Below, in pieces: positions 46,288 to 63,988 of a stretch of 64,000 nucleotides of DNA. Position 1 is the stretch's first letter; each line of letters starts with the position of its first letter. This DNA comes from Iphione sp. A-MEVVRFRX5. Taxonomy: Eukaryota. The stretch covers positions 93,496,001 to 93,560,000 of the forward strand of contig OZ320317.1 of NCBI GenBank assembly GCA_976226885.1, written 5' to 3'. The position numbers and the translations under genes are program-made. The notes under the pieces are model-generated. The model did not search any database and was not told the DNA's origin. It saw only the letters and a program-made list of their open reading frames with translations.

Positions 46288-47000
46288 TCACAGTAACTGG
46301 AACCGATGATTGTAAAAAATTATGTACATGTGCACGACCACAGGTGGTACATTTAATTTGAGGCCCCATGATTCAACTTCTGTGTGGATCAGAAATCCCT
46401 TGTCCGCCATTAAGGCATCGCCGGTCTGCACATATCCTGCCTCGATTAAGTTGGCCAAGAACTGGTACAACTTTGATTGCTTTGCCACCTCCTTGTCTGA
46501 CATGGCTCCGGTAAAGAGAGGTGAAATGTATATGACACATCCCCTTGGATCGCTAATCACCAAGCCTTTCAGTGTTGTTGTGCCTTTGTACTCAGAGAAG
46601 CAATGGCTCTGCAGAATTAGTGAGCTTGGTCTTTTAATCTTAATTCCGTGCAATCTAAGATTGCAAGAGTTGTAGGGTATATCTCTCGGAAAGACCTCGG
46701 CATAGCATCGATGATTTCAGATCTATCAGGCCATAAGGGAACAGACACCGATTGATAAAACATCAAGTTTATCCATGTATTGAAAATGATGGAAATATCC
46801 TGGGGCATTATGTTGAACAGAAAGGCCAGATCATTGAATTGCAACACCTCTTCTTAGTTTGATGAGAACCATCTGGTGTTATTTTTGGGCCACGTAGTTT
46901 GTCCCAAGATTGCGGGCGCAATGTGCATGATGTGATCTGGTATGTAAACCAGACCAGCATCAATCCAATTTCATAGGCTGAATACCAGCTCGACGAAATG
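46288..47000 (-). pseudogene. ISL2EU-type transposase remnant 3
   Basis: DLAFLFNI...TWINLMF...WP...ILDCTEL...FSEYKGTTTLKGLVISDPRG...GAMSDKEV...MADKGFLI...LNVPP. Confidence 0.85.
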
Positions 47001-48879: not shown

Positions 48880-49276
48880 TTAATAAAGTCTGACACCATA
48901 CCACCCACCTCACTACCCACTCACCATACCCCCAGTCTGACACTCTATCGTCCACCTCACTACCACCTCTCCCACTACCCACTCACCATACCTAGAGTCT
49001 AACACCCATTCATCCACCTTATTACCACCTCTCCCACAACACACTCACCATACACACAGTACCACCCACCTCACTACCACTGCCCCCACTACCCGCTTAC
49101 CATACCTTAGTCTTACATCCTACCACCCACCTTACTACCACGTCCCCATCATCCATTTACCATACACATATTCAGACAACCAACCACCCTCCTTACTATC
49201 ATTATTTAAACTACTGACTCGCCATTTCCAGAGTTTGACATACTACTCTCCACCTTACTACCACTTCCCTCACTAC
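48880..49276. repeat. Degenerate C-rich minisatellite (~60-bp unit, CCACC/CTACC-rich)
   Basis: Recurring ccacctcactaccac...cactcaccatac units ending at the LTR edge. Confidence 0.7.
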
Positions 49277-49749
49277 TGTAACAAAGAACACCACGAGCAG
49301 GTTCTTCAATCGTCCGGCCTTTATTTCTGAAGCAGCATCGCAGGTTACACGGTCGTCTCTGGCGGGTCCCAACAAGGACGCGCAACTCTCTCCTTATATA
49401 CCAAACAGTGACGTAAACAACGCTACAAAAGTATGCAAAGCCCGCCGCGCTATCAGCAGCGGAAGTCTCATTTAGACAGCATACGATTGATCACCCATTG
49501 TGTCGACTCCAACTAGCGACAATACCGCATGCCTCTACTGATAATACCTCGTTAATTGTAATGGTCACTTCGTTAACAAGATAAGGAACAACCTGTTTAC
49601 AAGTTGGACGTCACGTACGCCAATCGAAAATTTTAACTGCGTCTCCAGTAAAAGGCCCTTCTTTAACACGTATATCTGTACACTATACACAACACAGTAC
49701 GCCCTTTCCTCATGCATATATTCTTAACTCATTCCAGTACTGTGTTACA
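49277..49749 (-). mobile_element. 3' LTR (473 bp) of an LTR retrotransposon, probably Ty3/Gypsy
   Basis: TGTAACA...TGTTACA inverted termini; minus-strand TATATAA (~49395) and AATAAA (~49320); polypurine tract directly adjacent. Confidence 0.85.
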
Positions 49750-49763
49750 TCCCTCCCCTTCTT
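49750..49763 (-). other. Polypurine tract
   Basis: AAGAAGGGGAGGGA immediately 5' of the LTR on the minus strand. Confidence 0.85.
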
Positions 49764-49770
49764 GAGAGCA

Positions 49771-50218
49771 ATGCCACCATTGCTACACATATGTATGGCT
49801 AAGGCTATTGACCGCTATTACAAGGAGATCATGGCCAAGGCCATAGATCGATATTACGAGGAGAACAGCAAACACGGCCCACTCGGACCGAGGTCTTACA
49901 CAAGACTACACGCTCCGTATTCACGTACAGGAAAACCATCATCTGTTCCTGCCTAGGCCATTGGAAGAAGGCATCATCCGGTCGCTGCATCCACGCGCGC
50001 TGCCATCGGATCTCGAGCACGTCCCTATGGAGGAGGAACTACTCATCGGGAAGAACGAGGTCTCTACTCAACCATACACGGTCTTCCGTCTTGCGTTATA
50101 TAAATATTCCTATCTTCCTATTCTACCGTTTTTGTTTTTATTTTTATTTTTGTTTGCCGTTTTCCTTATGGAAAGAACACCCGTCACACTTCTGCAACTG
50201 GAGTTCAGGACCACGTAA
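49771..50218 (+). CDS. Antisense ORF in the 3' internal region of the LTR element (one frameshift needed to extend)
   Basis: MPPLLHIC-MAKAIDRYYKEI-MAKAIDRYYEEN...; the duplicated nonapeptide differs only at synonymous third positions; a neighbouring frame is open ~49845-50218. Confidence 0.5.
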
Positions 50219-51112
50219 CCATAAGAGGTTACAACAAGACACTCTACTGTTGAAGAAGTACAGATCAACCATTCTCATTCCACGAGTGTTTTTTTTTTAT
50301 TTTTTAAAGAGAAAGAAGGAAGATTAAAGAAATATGGAAGGGAAGCCAAGGATTTTGCTTTTGAGCTCATTCTGGTCCTTCAGTTCAGGAGAGGCCTTCA
50401 CCGAACAGATCAGCAACTGTGACCAATCACTGCCGGACAGGAATGTCAAGCAGAGGTGGTGCATTTTGAGGGAAACTCTCGTCCCACAGAAACAAGGTCT
50501 GACTCCCTTGGCGACCATGAGAAACCCGTTCACAGATCAGAGCGGACAGGCCTAAACCTGGCTCCTCGTCTGGAGGCTACCGTTCCAAAGAAGAAAAAGT
50601 GTGGCGGCCCTAAGGCTCAGACCATCCCTGGAGCGTTGAGAGGAGGGCACTCCGAAACGATATGTACAACTGGGAGACCAATCCTCTCAACCTCCCACGG
50701 TGGTCCGACACCTTCCCGTTACAGTAACCCAAGCGTTATAATGGTTATATCTTCTTTGCAGGTATCATGGTACGATACAATTCACAACCATGGCTGTCAG
50801 CCCCTCTGTCCATCGCAACACCGTCATCACAATTTATAATTGATCACACACGCGTATACATTGGTATATAATGATTATAGGTCAAGACATTTATAGCATA
50901 CACAGTGTTTTGTTGTTTTTTTTTTTTTCAATAACAACAATACTTCAACAATCGACCCGTCTGGTACCAACAATACCAGAAATAACAGCAACAACAAAAC
51001 AACTTAGGCAGTAGGCTCACCTGGCCCATGCCTGTGTCGACACTACATAACACAGTACACCTTGAGCGGGAGATCTTCTCTCCACCTGCCAACCATGTAC
51101 TCATAACCCTGC

Positions 51113-51607
51113 TTACTGAAATACGGAAAACGGATACTTCTTAGGGGCTGTCACCTGCAGTCCCCCGTTGCCTTCGGGTCGGTATACTTCAAGCTGCTGG
51201 GACGGACCACCAGACAAACGTACAGCACATTCAGGCACCACTCTCTCAGGCTCCGGTAAGGGTGGAATGGCATAGGTAACCGTGGTGTTAGTAGGTCGCA
51301 CCCGTTCAGGACTTTCCTTTGCACTCGATTCCCCCAAATTAATAGTGATTGGAGCTGACCCATTCCCGGTTCCTCTCGGTCCCATGGACGACCGTTGAGC
51401 TAACTGTCTCCATCTCCCCTTCTTACACAAGCAACAATAACAGCACATCCCCAAGGTCAGGGCTGAACTCAGTCCCCCTAACGCCCAGATGATCGTAGAA
51501 GTTATTGAGGTTCCCGGCAACAAGGGATTTCCTGCCACCCGATCGTGTAAATTGTTGATACGTTGCATGATGTCCGCTACATCTGACTCCATTAACCTTC
51601 TCACCAC
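51113..51607 (-). CDS. Envelope-like protein C-terminus (helical stretch, TM segment, Cys cluster, cytoplasmic tail)
   Basis: VADIMQRINNLHDRV...IIWALGGLSSALTLGMCCYCCLCKKGRWR...; lies upstream of PPT/LTR in env position; 5'-truncated by the satellite. Confidence 0.6.
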   Translation of the reverse strand: MVRRLMESDVADIMQRINNLHDRVAGNPLLPGTSITSTIIWALGGLSSALTLGMCCYCCLCKKGRWRQLAQRSSMGPRGTGNGSAPITINLGESSAKESPERVRPTNTTVTYAIPPLPEPERVVPECAVRLSGGPSQQLEVYRPEGNGGLQVTAPKKYPFSVFQ

Positions 51608-51639: not shown

Positions 51640-53720
51640 GTACCTTTTTGCTTGATGGGTTGCAAAACCTTTTTCCAAGACTGAAGTAATAAGTCATATA
51701 TCATTGAAAAGCATATTTCATCAATTTTCCAAAAATTATAATTTTGGAAATTTTTGGTTACCATGGTAACCATATTGGAATAATATTTCTAAATTTCATG
51801 CAAATATTAAATAGACTGCCATTTTATATATGTAGTTGACATGAATTTACTTTGCACTGACACAGAACACTAGTACAAGCATATATCTATATTTTGATAT
51901 ACTGGTTACTATAGTAACATCTATCATAGGTAACATGGGGTCAATGAAAAAGGATAAGTACCATCCTTTTTCGACATCAGTCAAAAATACAGCATGATGC
52001 AAAATGACTGCTTTCAATCATAAGAGTGGTTGTATTCAACCCTGTATTATGGCGGTTTACCTATATACATATACTAAATAACATATCTCCTTATAATCTA
52101 GGATGCAAGAGTTTTTCACTTTCTGATACAAGTGAATTATTTGATGGTAACCATGGCAACCAAATAAAATTTACCTAAAAATGTAGCAGATCATTTATCA
52201 AAGGGAAATAGTATCTTTTTTTGCTGGCAAGCACTCTGTAATGAATGAATCATCTCAGTTTGCAGTCTTGCTGATCGTTCCATAGATTGTTACCATGGTA
52301 ACATCACAAACAACTAAAGCAGAGTGGATCCAAATAGGATACACATATCTGAATGAGCTCTGTCAGCAAAATGCTGCAAATGGCAAGTTGGCTGCTTTCA
52401 GTCATAAGAGTGGTTGCATTCAACCCTGCATTATGGCTGTTTACCTGTACATATCTATTAAATAACATATCTCATTATGACGTAGGACATGAAAAGATTT
52501 CATAAATTGAAATAAAAAGATTATTCTATGGTTACCATGGCAACCAAGGGAAATGAACTACAAAATATATCAGGTCAGTCATATATCAGAGGGAAATATT
52601 ACTTTTTTTGTTACTCAAGCTGCTTTAAAAAGTAAATTATTTCATTTTATAGTCATGCTGATGAGTTCCTAGATTGTAACCATGGTAACATCATCAACAA
52701 CTGAAGCAGAGACCATCCAAGTAGGATACACATATCAAAATGAGCCATGTCAGCAAAATGCTGCATATGGCAAAATGACTGCTTTCAGTCATGAGAGTGG
52801 TTGCATAAAACCATAAATTGTAGCTATTTACCTATGAACATATACTGATTAAGATATGTCATTATGATGTAGGACATGAAAAGTTTTTATAAATTGAAAT
52901 AAGAAGATTATTCTATGGTTACCATGGCAAGCAAGGGAAATGAACTGCAAAATATATCAGGTCAGTCATATATCAGAGGGAAATATTACTTTTTTTGTTA
53001 CTCAAGCTGCTTTAAAAAGTAAATTATTTCATTTTATAGTCGTGCTGATGAGTTCCTAGATTGTAACCATGGTAACATCAACAACTGAAGCAGAGACCAT
53101 CCAAGTAGGATATACACATATCCAAATGAGCTATGTCAGCAAAATGCTGCATATGGCAAAATGACTGCTTTCAGTCATGAGAGTGGTTGCATAAAACCAT
53201 AAATTGTAGCTATTTACCTATAAACATATACTGATTAAGATATGTCATTATGATGTAGGACATGAAAAGTTTTTATGAATTGAAATAAGAAGATTATTCT
53301 ATGGTTACCATGGCAACCAAGGGAAATGAACTGCAAATATATCAGGTCAATCATATATCAGACGGAAATATTACTTTTTTTGCCAACAAGCACTCTGTAA
53401 TGAATGAATCATCTCAGTTTACAGTCTTGCTGATCGTTCCATAGATTGTTACCATGGTAACAGCACAAACAACTGAAGCAGAGCGGATTCAAATAGGATA
53501 CAGATATCTAAATGAGCTCTGTCAGCCAAATTCTGCATATGGCCAAATCACTGTTTCTGACTATGAGAGTGGTTACATTCAGTGATAAATTAGGGCTATT
53601 TTCTTGTAAACAACTTCTGGATAACATCCCTCATAGTGATCTAGGATATAAGAAGTTCTTAAGTATTGATCAAAATTTAATCATTTGATGGTTACCATGG
53701 CAACCAATTGAAATTTACCC
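51640..53720. repeat. Tandem satellite, ~387-bp unit x5, two palindromic X-box-like motifs per unit
   Basis: GT(T/A)ACCATGG(C/T)AA(C/G) at 51757, 52147, 52531, 52918, 53304, 53691 (period 384-390) and 52289, 52676, 53063, 53448. Confidence 0.92.
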
Positions 53721-54513: not shown

Positions 54514-57500
54514 CTAGTTCCAGTACTCTTTCTTGTGGTGCCAGTCAGACCAGCATGTTGAATTGTCTCTGATGCAGAGATGTGCCTGGCAATGCCGACT
54601 TGCACACATGAATGTTGTCTTGGACCTTTCATGTGTGCTAGGGTCCCTTTGATGCTTTGTCTCACACACAACACATCTGTGGTTTGTGCCTTCACTCTTT
54701 ACTGGGATATGGTCCGTGTCTGTCAGCCTGCCCAGTGTTGTTGGCGCACGCATTGTCCCAACTTTCTCCTTGCTGAGAATGTATGGACCAATTCCTTTGC
54801 CACCTGGATAAACAGGAAATAAAACAATATGTTATTAAGGGATAATATATATAATGTATATATAAATATATATTATATTTATTAAAATATTAATATAAAA
54901 TATGAACTTACCTCTCTACAGAAGTAGCGGAAGTCACATCGCCGATGTGATGCTGGCAGATGAGCTACTTTTCTCCAAATGACATAAGCATTGTATGCTG
55001 CCCACAGCAGCAGCTTCCGTTCCAGCTTGATATGCCTGATGAATATTTTGCAAAAGTTTGATACAATGAGTGGGCCATCATTCTGAGTAAGGAAATAGGA
55101 CCATAGATTCTAGTAGCATCTGTTCCTCTTTGCAGATGAAGAAGTCATGATATATTTTATGATACTACAACTTTACAAATACTGATCTTAGGTAAATGTA
55201 AATAACTCAGTTGTATAAGAAATAAGATTTTTTTTATGTGATCTTAAAGAAATCTATTTTTAGCATTCACATAAGCCTACCACTTATATGATTTCCGACT
55301 GCGATCAATGGTGGTCATACGTCCATTCAAATCAACCCCACCCATATGCATATTGTATGCTTTTACAGATGGGGGGGCTGTAATGGCATGCTTCTGCCCT
55401 CTGGAATCCACACGGCTTACAGTGCATGCATAATCCGCCACATGAATTGTGGACAGAAATCCAATGGGTCTTTTGTCTTGCCATATTGTTGCAAGCATTC
55501 CTATAAAAAAGACGAGGTTATTGATATATTTTCAAATACCCATGTTTAGAGGTATTTAAATATATCTATAAATTAAGCAAGTTCTTCTAAGAGTTACTAA
55601 CAGGAAATGGGAAAAGTCAAATTTCATTGAATAATTTTAATGGTTTGACCTCTGAAATAATAAATCAAAGGTGAAATTATTATATGATAACCTCCCACAA
55701 AGAGTAAGTATATAAATATGTACTTACCAGTATTTTGGCATTGAAGCCATCTGCTTTGTCCTGGCTCCAGCTGTGGCAAGTTTGAAGGTTTCAGACATTC
55801 GGGTAGACCGCGTCTATTCCACATAACTGTGCCACAAGCACTGAGGTCAAGCTTTGTCAGATAGCCAAAGAGCAAGGGACTAGTGTAGAACCTTCATCAC
55901 AACAAAGAAAACATTAAAATATTACATTTATGATTGTTGACAAATGTTTGCATTCACAATATGCAAATAATCTCAAAGTATCTCAATAATACTCAAAGTA
56001 TAATTACAGTACATTATTGTTCATATTTATTGTTTTCTTTGCTCCTAAATTCTTTTGTCTTTATATATATTTACTTAACTTCTAAATATGGAGGGAGCTC
56101 TCACAAAAATATGTGTATTCCTGACATACAAGATGTGCAGTTTTGGATTGAAAATGTCCCTAGCTAGCTAAAAGAAAAAATGTTCTGTATGTATAATATT
56201 CTAAATTAAATTTGATTTAATATTCCTGGGCTGTGTATGATATCAAGTATGAATAATTTAAATTCCCTGATATTCTTTACCTGTCCATGTATACATGGTA
56301 TCCTAAACCATGCAAGGGTTTAGTTAGAGTTACTACAGCTCTTGATGCTAACCCAATTGTGGTGCAGTCTGATAATGTGTCTTTGCCAGCATATATCTCA
56401 AAGTTGTAGTTATAACTGAAACAGAATTTCAATAGGACTTTTATGTGATTAGATCTTGCTACATGTATATTACAAAAGAAACATCACAACACATAATACA
56501 CATGATATATGTGGTGTGACTGAATGTAATAAAAATCATAAATGATTATCAATAAACTCTCTTTAAGAACAAAAAAACAAATATAATTTGACAATCTAAT
56601 GTGCCTGATGAGACATAGACAAAACCATGTGATTATTGTGAATCATAAAAAGAGCAGCATAGCAAATCAAGAAACTACATTGTGGGACCTTAGAGCACCA
56701 TAGCAAAAAGGTCACAAACAGATATATAAAGGGAGGCAATGTATTGGCTGGCCACACACTCGGTAGCACACAGCATAGTCTACCAATGCTTTACCAATAG
56801 ACCATAAAGTGACATAACCATGATGTTGAGTCCTGTAACTTACATACCAGGTCTATCCATAATGCAGTGTTCTACTGTGTTAATTGCTGATACAACATTT
56901 CTTTTTTGGAAAAATAATTATGTTTTGAAAAGCTGATACATCAGTACTGCTCTAACAAACACAGATACAAATTTTTACAAAAAATACAGTCAAGAAACCC
57001 TATTTGTGACCACATCAATTAGCAACCATTTGCTATTTGTGAACACACAAGGTGGGAGGAAAACTGCTGATTTCTATACATTTGATAACCTATTTGCAAC
57101 CAAATTCGCCAATGGGACCATTTAAGTTTGTAGCAGAGAGTTGGTCACAAATAGGCTTTCAGCTGTTTAAGATGAAAAAGTGCAGGTGTTCCTGAAGAGA
57201 TATTTACCCAGTTTTAGAATCTGCCAGCATGAATGCCTTGATACCCCACTTAACTGGCTTATCCTTGCAATACTGTTTGAATCGAAGACGTCCCTTAAAT
57301 GGTACCATTGTTTCATCCACGCAAACTTCCTGATCAGGAATATATTCTCTCTGAAATGCTTGACAATAAGAGTAACGCTGTTAAATATATGAGAAGGTTT
57401 TTTATCCGCTTTTCAATCTTTTTTTCAAATTATTCTCAGTAATCACAATTCATTTACACTTTCATTGTACCTTTAACCAGGAACTAGATATTTATCATTT

Positions 57501-63399: not shown

Positions 63400-63988
63400 A
63401 GATCTACTTCTCTGATTTGGATGCAAAAAGTATCAAAAGATTTGCCATCATCTCAGGAACATTTTGCTGGTAAGTATATGTCTCTAGCATCAACAGCCTT
63501 GCTGTAGCGAGCAGAAACGTATTACGTCATAAATATCGCGAGTCGGCCGCCACTTTGGTAAAATTCCTCACTACTTTAGTCAGGAATAATGTAAGATCTA
63601 CTGGTCCGATTTTGATGAACAACCACCAAAAGATTCGTCATTATCTAAGGAACATTTTGGTGGTAAGCATGTCTCTGTAGCGTAAATAGCTGTGCCATGG
63701 CGAACAAAAACGTGCTGCATCGAAAATATCGCGATTCGGCCGCCATTTTCGTTACATTCTTCACTACTTTAGTCAGGAATGATGTAAGATCTACTGGTCC
63801 GATTTTGATGCAACAACCACCAAAAGATTCGTCATTATCTCAGAAACATTTTTGCTGGTAAGCATGTGTTTCTATCGAAAATAGCCTTGCCATAGCAAGC
63901 GAAAACGTATCACGTCGTAAATATCGCGAGTCGGTTGCCGCTTTGTTTACTTTCTTGGCCGGTAAAGCGGCCAGTGGTGGGGAGTGGG
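63400..63988 (-). repeat. ~193-bp subterminal tandem repeats (~3 units) ending in a piggyBac-type terminus GGG|TTAA
   Basis: aacatttt(g/t)..tggtaag...aaatatcgcga.tcgg at 63459, 63651, 63846; GAGTGGG|TTAA at 63982-63992. Confidence 0.7.

Follow-up and report, generated by a model that had tools for sequence, protein, structure and literature searches.

Does the DNA beside the 3′ LTR of an env-bearing retroelement in Iphione sp. encode a protein on the strand opposite to the element's own genes? The question arose from a window of 64,000 nt (our term for the whole stretch of DNA analysed: contig OZ320317.1, positions 93,496,001 to 93,560,000, forward strand), which contains the 3′ end of a minus-strand LTR element, comprising the LTR, the polypurine tract (PPT), a 1.35-kb internal region, and a cut-off env. 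An initial annotation, made from the letters of the window, had proposed that this env-to-PPT region encodes a selected antisense accessory protein. The parts of the element itself are as follows.

49277..49749, minus strand: 3′ LTR of a Ty3/gypsy element, 473 bp, TGT...ACA, with LTR pairs in sister copies
49392-49400, element strand: TATA-like box in the 3′ LTR
49320-49325, element strand: AATAAA in the 3′ LTR
49750..49763, minus strand: PPT, abutting the LTR and near-identical in sister family 2
51113..51596, minus strand: C-terminal part of env; likeness to other copies stops at 51596

The window copy is 5′-truncated at 51596. A DNA search of the 1.18-Gb genome gave 1437 candidate copies. 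Twelve sister copies contain gag, a pol with protease, RT, RNase H, and integrase (order PR-RT-RH-IN), and env, and sister copies with LTRs, PPT, primer-binding site (PBS), gag, and pol are 92-98% identical to the window. Their third ORF, of 731 aa, matches Baculo_F with E=1e-7, which exceeds the curated cut-off and identifies an F-type env. The element is a young, high-copy gag-pol-env Ty3/gypsy element with an F-type env, errantivirus-like by gene order and Baculo_F match. Among window-like copies, the two LTRs of an insertion are 98.3-99.4% identical (n=6 full pairs), whereas those of insertions from the clade with an open antisense frame (described below) are 93-98% identical (pair obtained in 9 of 12), so the open-clade insertions are the older ones.

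Several side observations concern the element and its surroundings. Target-site duplications are 4 bp long (L283-L301), and TGGTGCCGTGACCAGG, which we take to be a tRNA-His-like PBS, lies ~15-17 nt behind the 5′ LTR and does not directly adjoin it (L283-L301). A weak dUTPase-like match is located between protease and RT (L037:1535-5722; E=0.021, under the cut-off). The insertion site itself is a degenerate C/A-rich tandem array (48887-49272). Elsewhere in the window there are a DDE_Tnp_4 (Harbinger-type) transposase fragment (46288-46716, minus strand, E=3.5e-18), a Cys-rich C-terminus with no Pfam match (54514-54831, minus strand), which presumably resembles those of piggyBac transposases, and 386-bp and 193-bp tandem arrays (51984-53719 and 63425-63954).

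The antisense frame is read on the plus strand, away from the LTR, and consists of the following parts.

49771..49956, plus strand: antisense ORF-A, 61 aa, beginning at an ATG that adjoins the PPT
49795..49830, plus strand: repeat unit 1, 12 codons, with the KAIDRYY motif
49831..49866, plus strand: repeat unit 2; the other main lineage has only one unit
49847..50218, plus strand: second antisense frame (TQDYTL...EEELL...), in a different register from ORF-A in the window copy
49955..50044, plus strand: best-conserved block, LLEEGII...[Y/H]VPMEEELL, with amino-acid-level constraint across subfamilies
50128..50170, plus strand: T-rich, indel-prone tract, encoding a hydrophobic C-terminal tail in several open copies

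The frame does start about 8 bp from the PPT, with its ATG at 49771 and the PPT at 49750-49763. The two MAKAIDRYY stretches at 49795-49821 and 49831-49857 differ, as first described, by five silent third-position changes. The repeat had been said to have diverged at synonymous sites exclusively; this holds for these nine codons but not for the full duplicated unit of 36 nt (12 codons), whose last three codons carry two amino-acid changes (K/E and I/N). The base at 49853, moreover, has the window's version in 0 of the 29 nearest copies, 28 of which have a Phe codon there; among 71 copies of the wider lineage, 30 have Tyr at this codon, 33 have Phe, and 7 have Ser. For kappa values of 1-8, and before correction for the frames and places scanned, the probability of a chance outcome is 0.0002-0.0013 for five silent differences out of five, 0.003-0.017 for five out of seven, and 0.006-0.036 for five out of eight. 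The silent bias of the repeat thus still exceeds chance, uncorrected for the search. Within the window's lineage the repeat units have an omega of 0.58 (p=0.07). One subfamily (L208, L210-L214, L221, L227, L231, L232, L235) has a GAA-type microsatellite in place of the KAIDRYY unit, and the downstream block is still open there.

The initial annotation had further supposed that a single frameshift separates ORF-A from the second segment. The two lie in different frames in the window and form a single frame in some natural copies. A break private to the window copy was ruled out, since the segments share one frame in 0 of 29 window-like copies. We searched the genome with two short anchors, one per segment, at every spacing of 36-60 nt. 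Both anchors matched in 916 copies, 873 of them with the window's out-of-register spacing and 31 in one frame; the derived form of the antisense frame is present in nearly all copies, and the frame is broken throughout the window's lineage (the 873 copies). The predicted long ORF nevertheless exists: in 17 of 108 aligned family copies, an uninterrupted antisense frame of 83-194 aa runs from the ATG next to the PPT through both segments, EELL motif included, and the N-terminal part of ORF-A corresponds to the start of this longer ORF. Fourteen of the 17 form part of a single clade whose members have only one repeat unit and share ~78% identity with the window. Of the other three, one branches close to the base of the two-unit lineage, and the remaining two, which sit within groups of broken copies, are probably secondary. 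Two loci without a PPT match and 11 duplicates were left out of the copy sets, as were, in another set, 9 of 40 copies that had no PPT match.

The ATG adjoining the PPT is found in nearly all copies, and the site of the break differs by subfamily: just after the ATG, between the segments, or directly after EELL. Of 148 copies, 143 have an open stretch from EEG to EELL; five had no anchor and went unscored. Length changes within 49898-50044 add up to a multiple of three in 104 of 107 copies, and a 9-nt indel that separates lineages is among them, whereas flanking windows shift frame freely.

Selection on the frame was assessed by maximum-likelihood (ML) omega. Uncorrected Nei-Gojobori values overstate selection because kappa is ~8, and they were therefore set aside. 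The main codon sample was 47 copies thinned from 108, with rare and CpG alleles masked. In this sample ML omega was 0.52 for 49910-50044 (p=7e-4) and 0.33 for 49958-50044 (p=3e-5), the best block having been picked post hoc, after the data had been seen. These values are biased downward, because 79 of the 108 copies were found via a peptide-preserving pattern or protein similarity. The antisense frame had one stop in the 47 copies versus 37-101 in the other five frames, whose omega values were 0.97, 1.71, 1.00, 1.98, and 0.46, the last being an opposite-strand shadow with 98 stops. The reverse possibility, that the antisense frame is a shadow of a sense ORF, was ruled out by the many stops in the sense frames. 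In the env control, omega was 0.08-0.21 across samples (0.08-0.13 in the 47-copy set), and a separate allele count in the env frame gave 38 silent versus 12 changing; constraint on the 30-codon block is much weaker than that on env (about 0.1).

The signal was unevenly distributed among lineages. With all branches counted, omega of the second segment was 0.78 (56 copies, p=0.13), and 0.75 in another all-branch run. For 49910-50044 and 49958-50044 it was 0.63 and 0.48 in the single-unit lineage alone (p=0.018 and 0.004; 59 of 71 copies), and the 15 primary open copies alone gave 0.59-0.66 (p=0.049-0.056). In the window's lineage (34 of 71 copies), ORF-A had an omega of 0.76 and the block 0.83-0.89, none of them significant, against 0.08 for env. 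Common non-CpG alleles of the block comprised 13 silent and 6 changing ones versus 56 and 120 in control stretches (p=0.002); in the window's lineage there were 5 silent and 6 changing (p=0.30). Omega ranged from 0.46 to 2.07 in LTR control windows, with 2 of 24 at or below 0.52, and from 0.41 to 2.24 in downstream tests (n=21), with 1 of 21 at 0.41. These 21 codon tests detected no frame with consistent constraint downstream of 50050, and a selected ORF spanning the whole 1.35 kb was ruled out, there being no coding signal elsewhere in that region. The KAIDRYYEE and LLEEG...EELL blocks are thus under moderate amino-acid constraint on deeper branches. The expected synonymous excess appeared in part of the frame, on deeper branches and in the single-unit lineage, and did not extend to the lineage of the window.

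Could the same pattern reflect a non-coding cis-element near the PPT, such as an RNA structure or a protein-binding site, with the silent changes being chance plus ascertainment? Control windows do sometimes reach an omega of 0.41-0.47, the sample was partly picked by peptide similarity, and most amplifying subfamilies are broken, as the anchor counts show (31/916 in frame). A hairpin at about 50015-50047 was also predicted in the sense RNA of all six copies folded. However, an alignment of six copies had no compensatory changes among 23 predicted pairs, and the block folds no better than shuffles (sense-strand folding z about 0). Variable sites tracked silence in the antisense frame (p=0.008) and not pairing of the sense RNA (p=0.25), and they did so also among unpaired sites (p=0.002). 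The amino-acid-level constraint of the 30-codon block is unexplained by RNA structure. In addition, the antisense frame is nearly stop-free where the other frames are not, and the window's own repeat, which was selected by no search, is silent-biased too. We consider a purely non-coding origin of the pattern unlikely. One structure was predicted apart from the ORF:

50612..50714, minus strand: stable hairpin predicted in the sense RNA, in the element's 3′ UTR

Its z was -4.25, with 0 of 200 shuffles equally stable, and z was -1.7 to -3.3 in 6 of 6 copies tested; judged from these folding models, it is a candidate export or packaging element.

The reading we favour, and hold with modest confidence, places the repeat in an antisense frame that begins next to the PPT of an env-bearing Ty3/gypsy element. 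This frame, which a minority of copies have open and which is broken in the lineage of the window, likely was a once-selected accessory gene that has since decayed. In the most strongly amplified lineage, to which the window copy belongs, what persists on this best reading is a relic of the antisense accessory gene. An antisense promoter in the 3′ LTR would have driven its transcription, by analogy with HTLV-1 hbz, and translation from the ATG beside the PPT would have given a mostly unstructured protein of ~100-130 aa. Shortly before the frame was lost, or at about that time, the 12-codon duplication would have given it a second copy of one tyrosine site. Transposition continued in subfamilies whose frames had been broken at different sites, and the gene is therefore not needed in cis for amplification; env is under strong selection in those subfamilies. 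The proposal that the env-bearing element encodes a selected antisense protein thus stands with respect to the presence of env, the natural open ORFs, and a partial constraint, and is not supported for the window's element as it is now.

It seems quite improbable to us that the window's lineage goes on expressing the gene, whether through splicing that reaches the second segment, through programmed frameshifting, or with the 61-aa ORF-A as sole product, although several features fit this. By eye, an acceptor-like site, CTTAC...CAG/G, ends at 49930; an early stop in the second segment, common to 11 of 40 sampled copies of this lineage, lies just upstream of it, and the frame is open behind. The codons preceding the block are neutral (3 silent, 16 changing), the spacing of the segments is identical in all 873 copies, and ORF-A has kept a length of 45-64 aa in 35 of the 40 sampled copies, with the omega of its two units given above. 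The shared stop, however, bars the frameshift route in the 11 copies that have it, no conserved splice donor was seen by eye, and neither the omega values nor the allele counts of the block in this lineage indicate selection at present. The YxxM motif described next has also been lost in many of these copies.

What the protein would have been was examined with the natural ORFs. Seventeen of them gave no Pfam match below E=0.2, with neither TRP28 (PF04195) nor bZIP among the hits, and no homologue was found in 1.84 billion representatives or in a set of 5.8 billion sequences, where an env query likewise found nothing. The PDB gave one match only (E=0.9), the best ESM Atlas scores were 0.80 and 0.90 with low recognition and no homologue, and viral and metagenome contigs contained no homologue. 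The AlphaFold model had a pLDDT of 49 with short helices and no confident fold. The hydrophobic C-terminal tail of several open copies reached a Kyte-Doolittle 19-mer value of 2.3. The conserved parts are acid-flanked tyrosines, namely DRYYEE and E-Y-V-P-M, the latter a YxxM. At the position of the YxxM (50018-50029), the window has His instead of the Tyr found in most single-unit copies. The motif is retained in 66 of 71 single-unit copies versus 37 of 77 two-unit copies, being lost in the other 40, and arises by chance in 14% of shuffles of the protein. Polyomavirus middle T is a viral YXXM protein that binds PI3K p85. Because acid-flanked tyrosines precede a hydrophobic tail in several copies, the first guess at a function would be a small signalling adaptor, which might have aided the element in the cells expressing it; this prediction from motifs is tentative. 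A more elaborate version, in which an HBZ-like antisense gene driven from the 3′ LTR encodes a membrane-tailed phosphotyrosine adaptor engaging host Src/PI3K, is still expressed from open-clade copies or spliced in others, and has a homologous gene in sister families, strikes us as very doubtful.

A family search found further env families, and the env of family 2 is 38% identical to that of the window's family. The two share the PPT/LTR edge, a short U3 match, and one further motif only:

50492..50534, plus strand: 43-nt/14-codon motif (SDSL.DHE), common to sister family 2 (L080, L093, L082)

Within this motif GACCATGAGA is nearly invariant, and neighbouring four-fold sites vary silently. It is a candidate for a protein motif, a start codon in a strong context, or a binding site. 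In some copies, family 2 has a 307-codon antisense frame behind the PPT (L093:2048-3109; L113-L142), which 11 of the 129 matches listed span stop-free. Twenty-nine copies of family 2 were without an ATG in this frame close to the PPT. No silent excess was seen in 27 copies sampled by their env (67 observed, 61.5 expected; p=0.22), so current selection on this long frame was rejected. Homology between the antisense frames of the two families would rest on 14 codons and is not established, and four further families had no related antisense frame. In another env family (L103, L104), a sense frame of 198-248 codons overlaps env at its end and may be a fourth gene.

Least probable of all is that a foreign gene, or a piece of another element, was captured in reverse and has drifted since without ever being useful to the element: the first 1 kb has few antisense stops (21, compared with 41 ± 4 for shuffled sequence, a scarcity that patchy base composition can cause), family 2 has its long frame without selection, and the text available of PMC7264820 gives capture as one proposed origin of antisense additional ORFs, but drift after capture would not yield an omega below 1 between subfamilies, and the searches of 1.84 billion and 5.8 billion sequences revealed no donor gene.

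Env-carrying gypsy elements outside insects have been described as simple gag-pol-env elements. If a selected antisense gene beside the PPT is real, it would bring the layouts of a complex retrovirus (HTLV-1 hbz) and of plant Retand and Grande into an animal Ty3/gypsy element, where many dated subfamilies would record the repeated loss of an accessory gene while env stays conserved. Its value is limited by the weak selection and by the putative nature of the ORF's role and expression.

Non-insect animal 'errantiviruses' (PMC13524379) resemble the present element in having gag, pol in the order PR-RT-RH-IN, and an F-type env, and in being multi-copy and recently active; the words 'antisense' and 'accessory' have 0 occurrences in the main text of that source. 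In the portion of the literature covered, which is incomplete and includes PMC13524379, PMC8220671, PMC4402516, and PMC3383448, supplements aside, no report of an antisense ORF in an animal env-bearing gypsy element or errantivirus was found. Alphavirus nsP3, according to the accessible part of PMC5805360, binds PI3K p85 through a YXXM (YEPM); the resemblance lies in an acid-flanked YxxM within a protein that is predicted to be unstructured and may have a membrane tail, and is one of motif without homology, the window copy itself being without the tyrosine.

Closer parallels are the plant and fungal Ty3/gypsy elements that, in the available text of PMC11963269 and PMC7264820, carry antisense ORFs between pol and the 3′ LTR, namely Grande (gene23), RIRE2, Retand (TRP28), and Boty (brtn); the same sources describe the antisense RNAs of micropia as non-coding. 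The present element shares with these its Ty3/gypsy class, an additional ORF in the 3′ internal region that runs antisense to gag-pol and that many copies contain or show in decayed form, and a tandem repeat in that region. It differs in having an animal host, an env, and a small ORF between env and the PPT, and, unlike the TRP28-bearing elements, it has neither TRP28 nor any other Pfam domain. Whereas 97% of Retand clusters keep the antisense ORF, it is broken in most copies here. As described in the accessible part of PMC5237517, HTLV-1 hbz has an antisense promoter in the 3′ LTR. The present frame resembles HBZ in being antisense, in pointing away from the 3′ LTR, and in belonging to a retroelement with env; unlike HBZ, it has no bZIP or other similarity, belongs to a Ty3/gypsy element and not to a deltaretrovirus, and is dispensable in cis, with transcription only predicted. 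Antisense ORFs of this class are thus known from plants, fungi, and HTLV-1, and the case described here was probably once real and is now mostly decayed.
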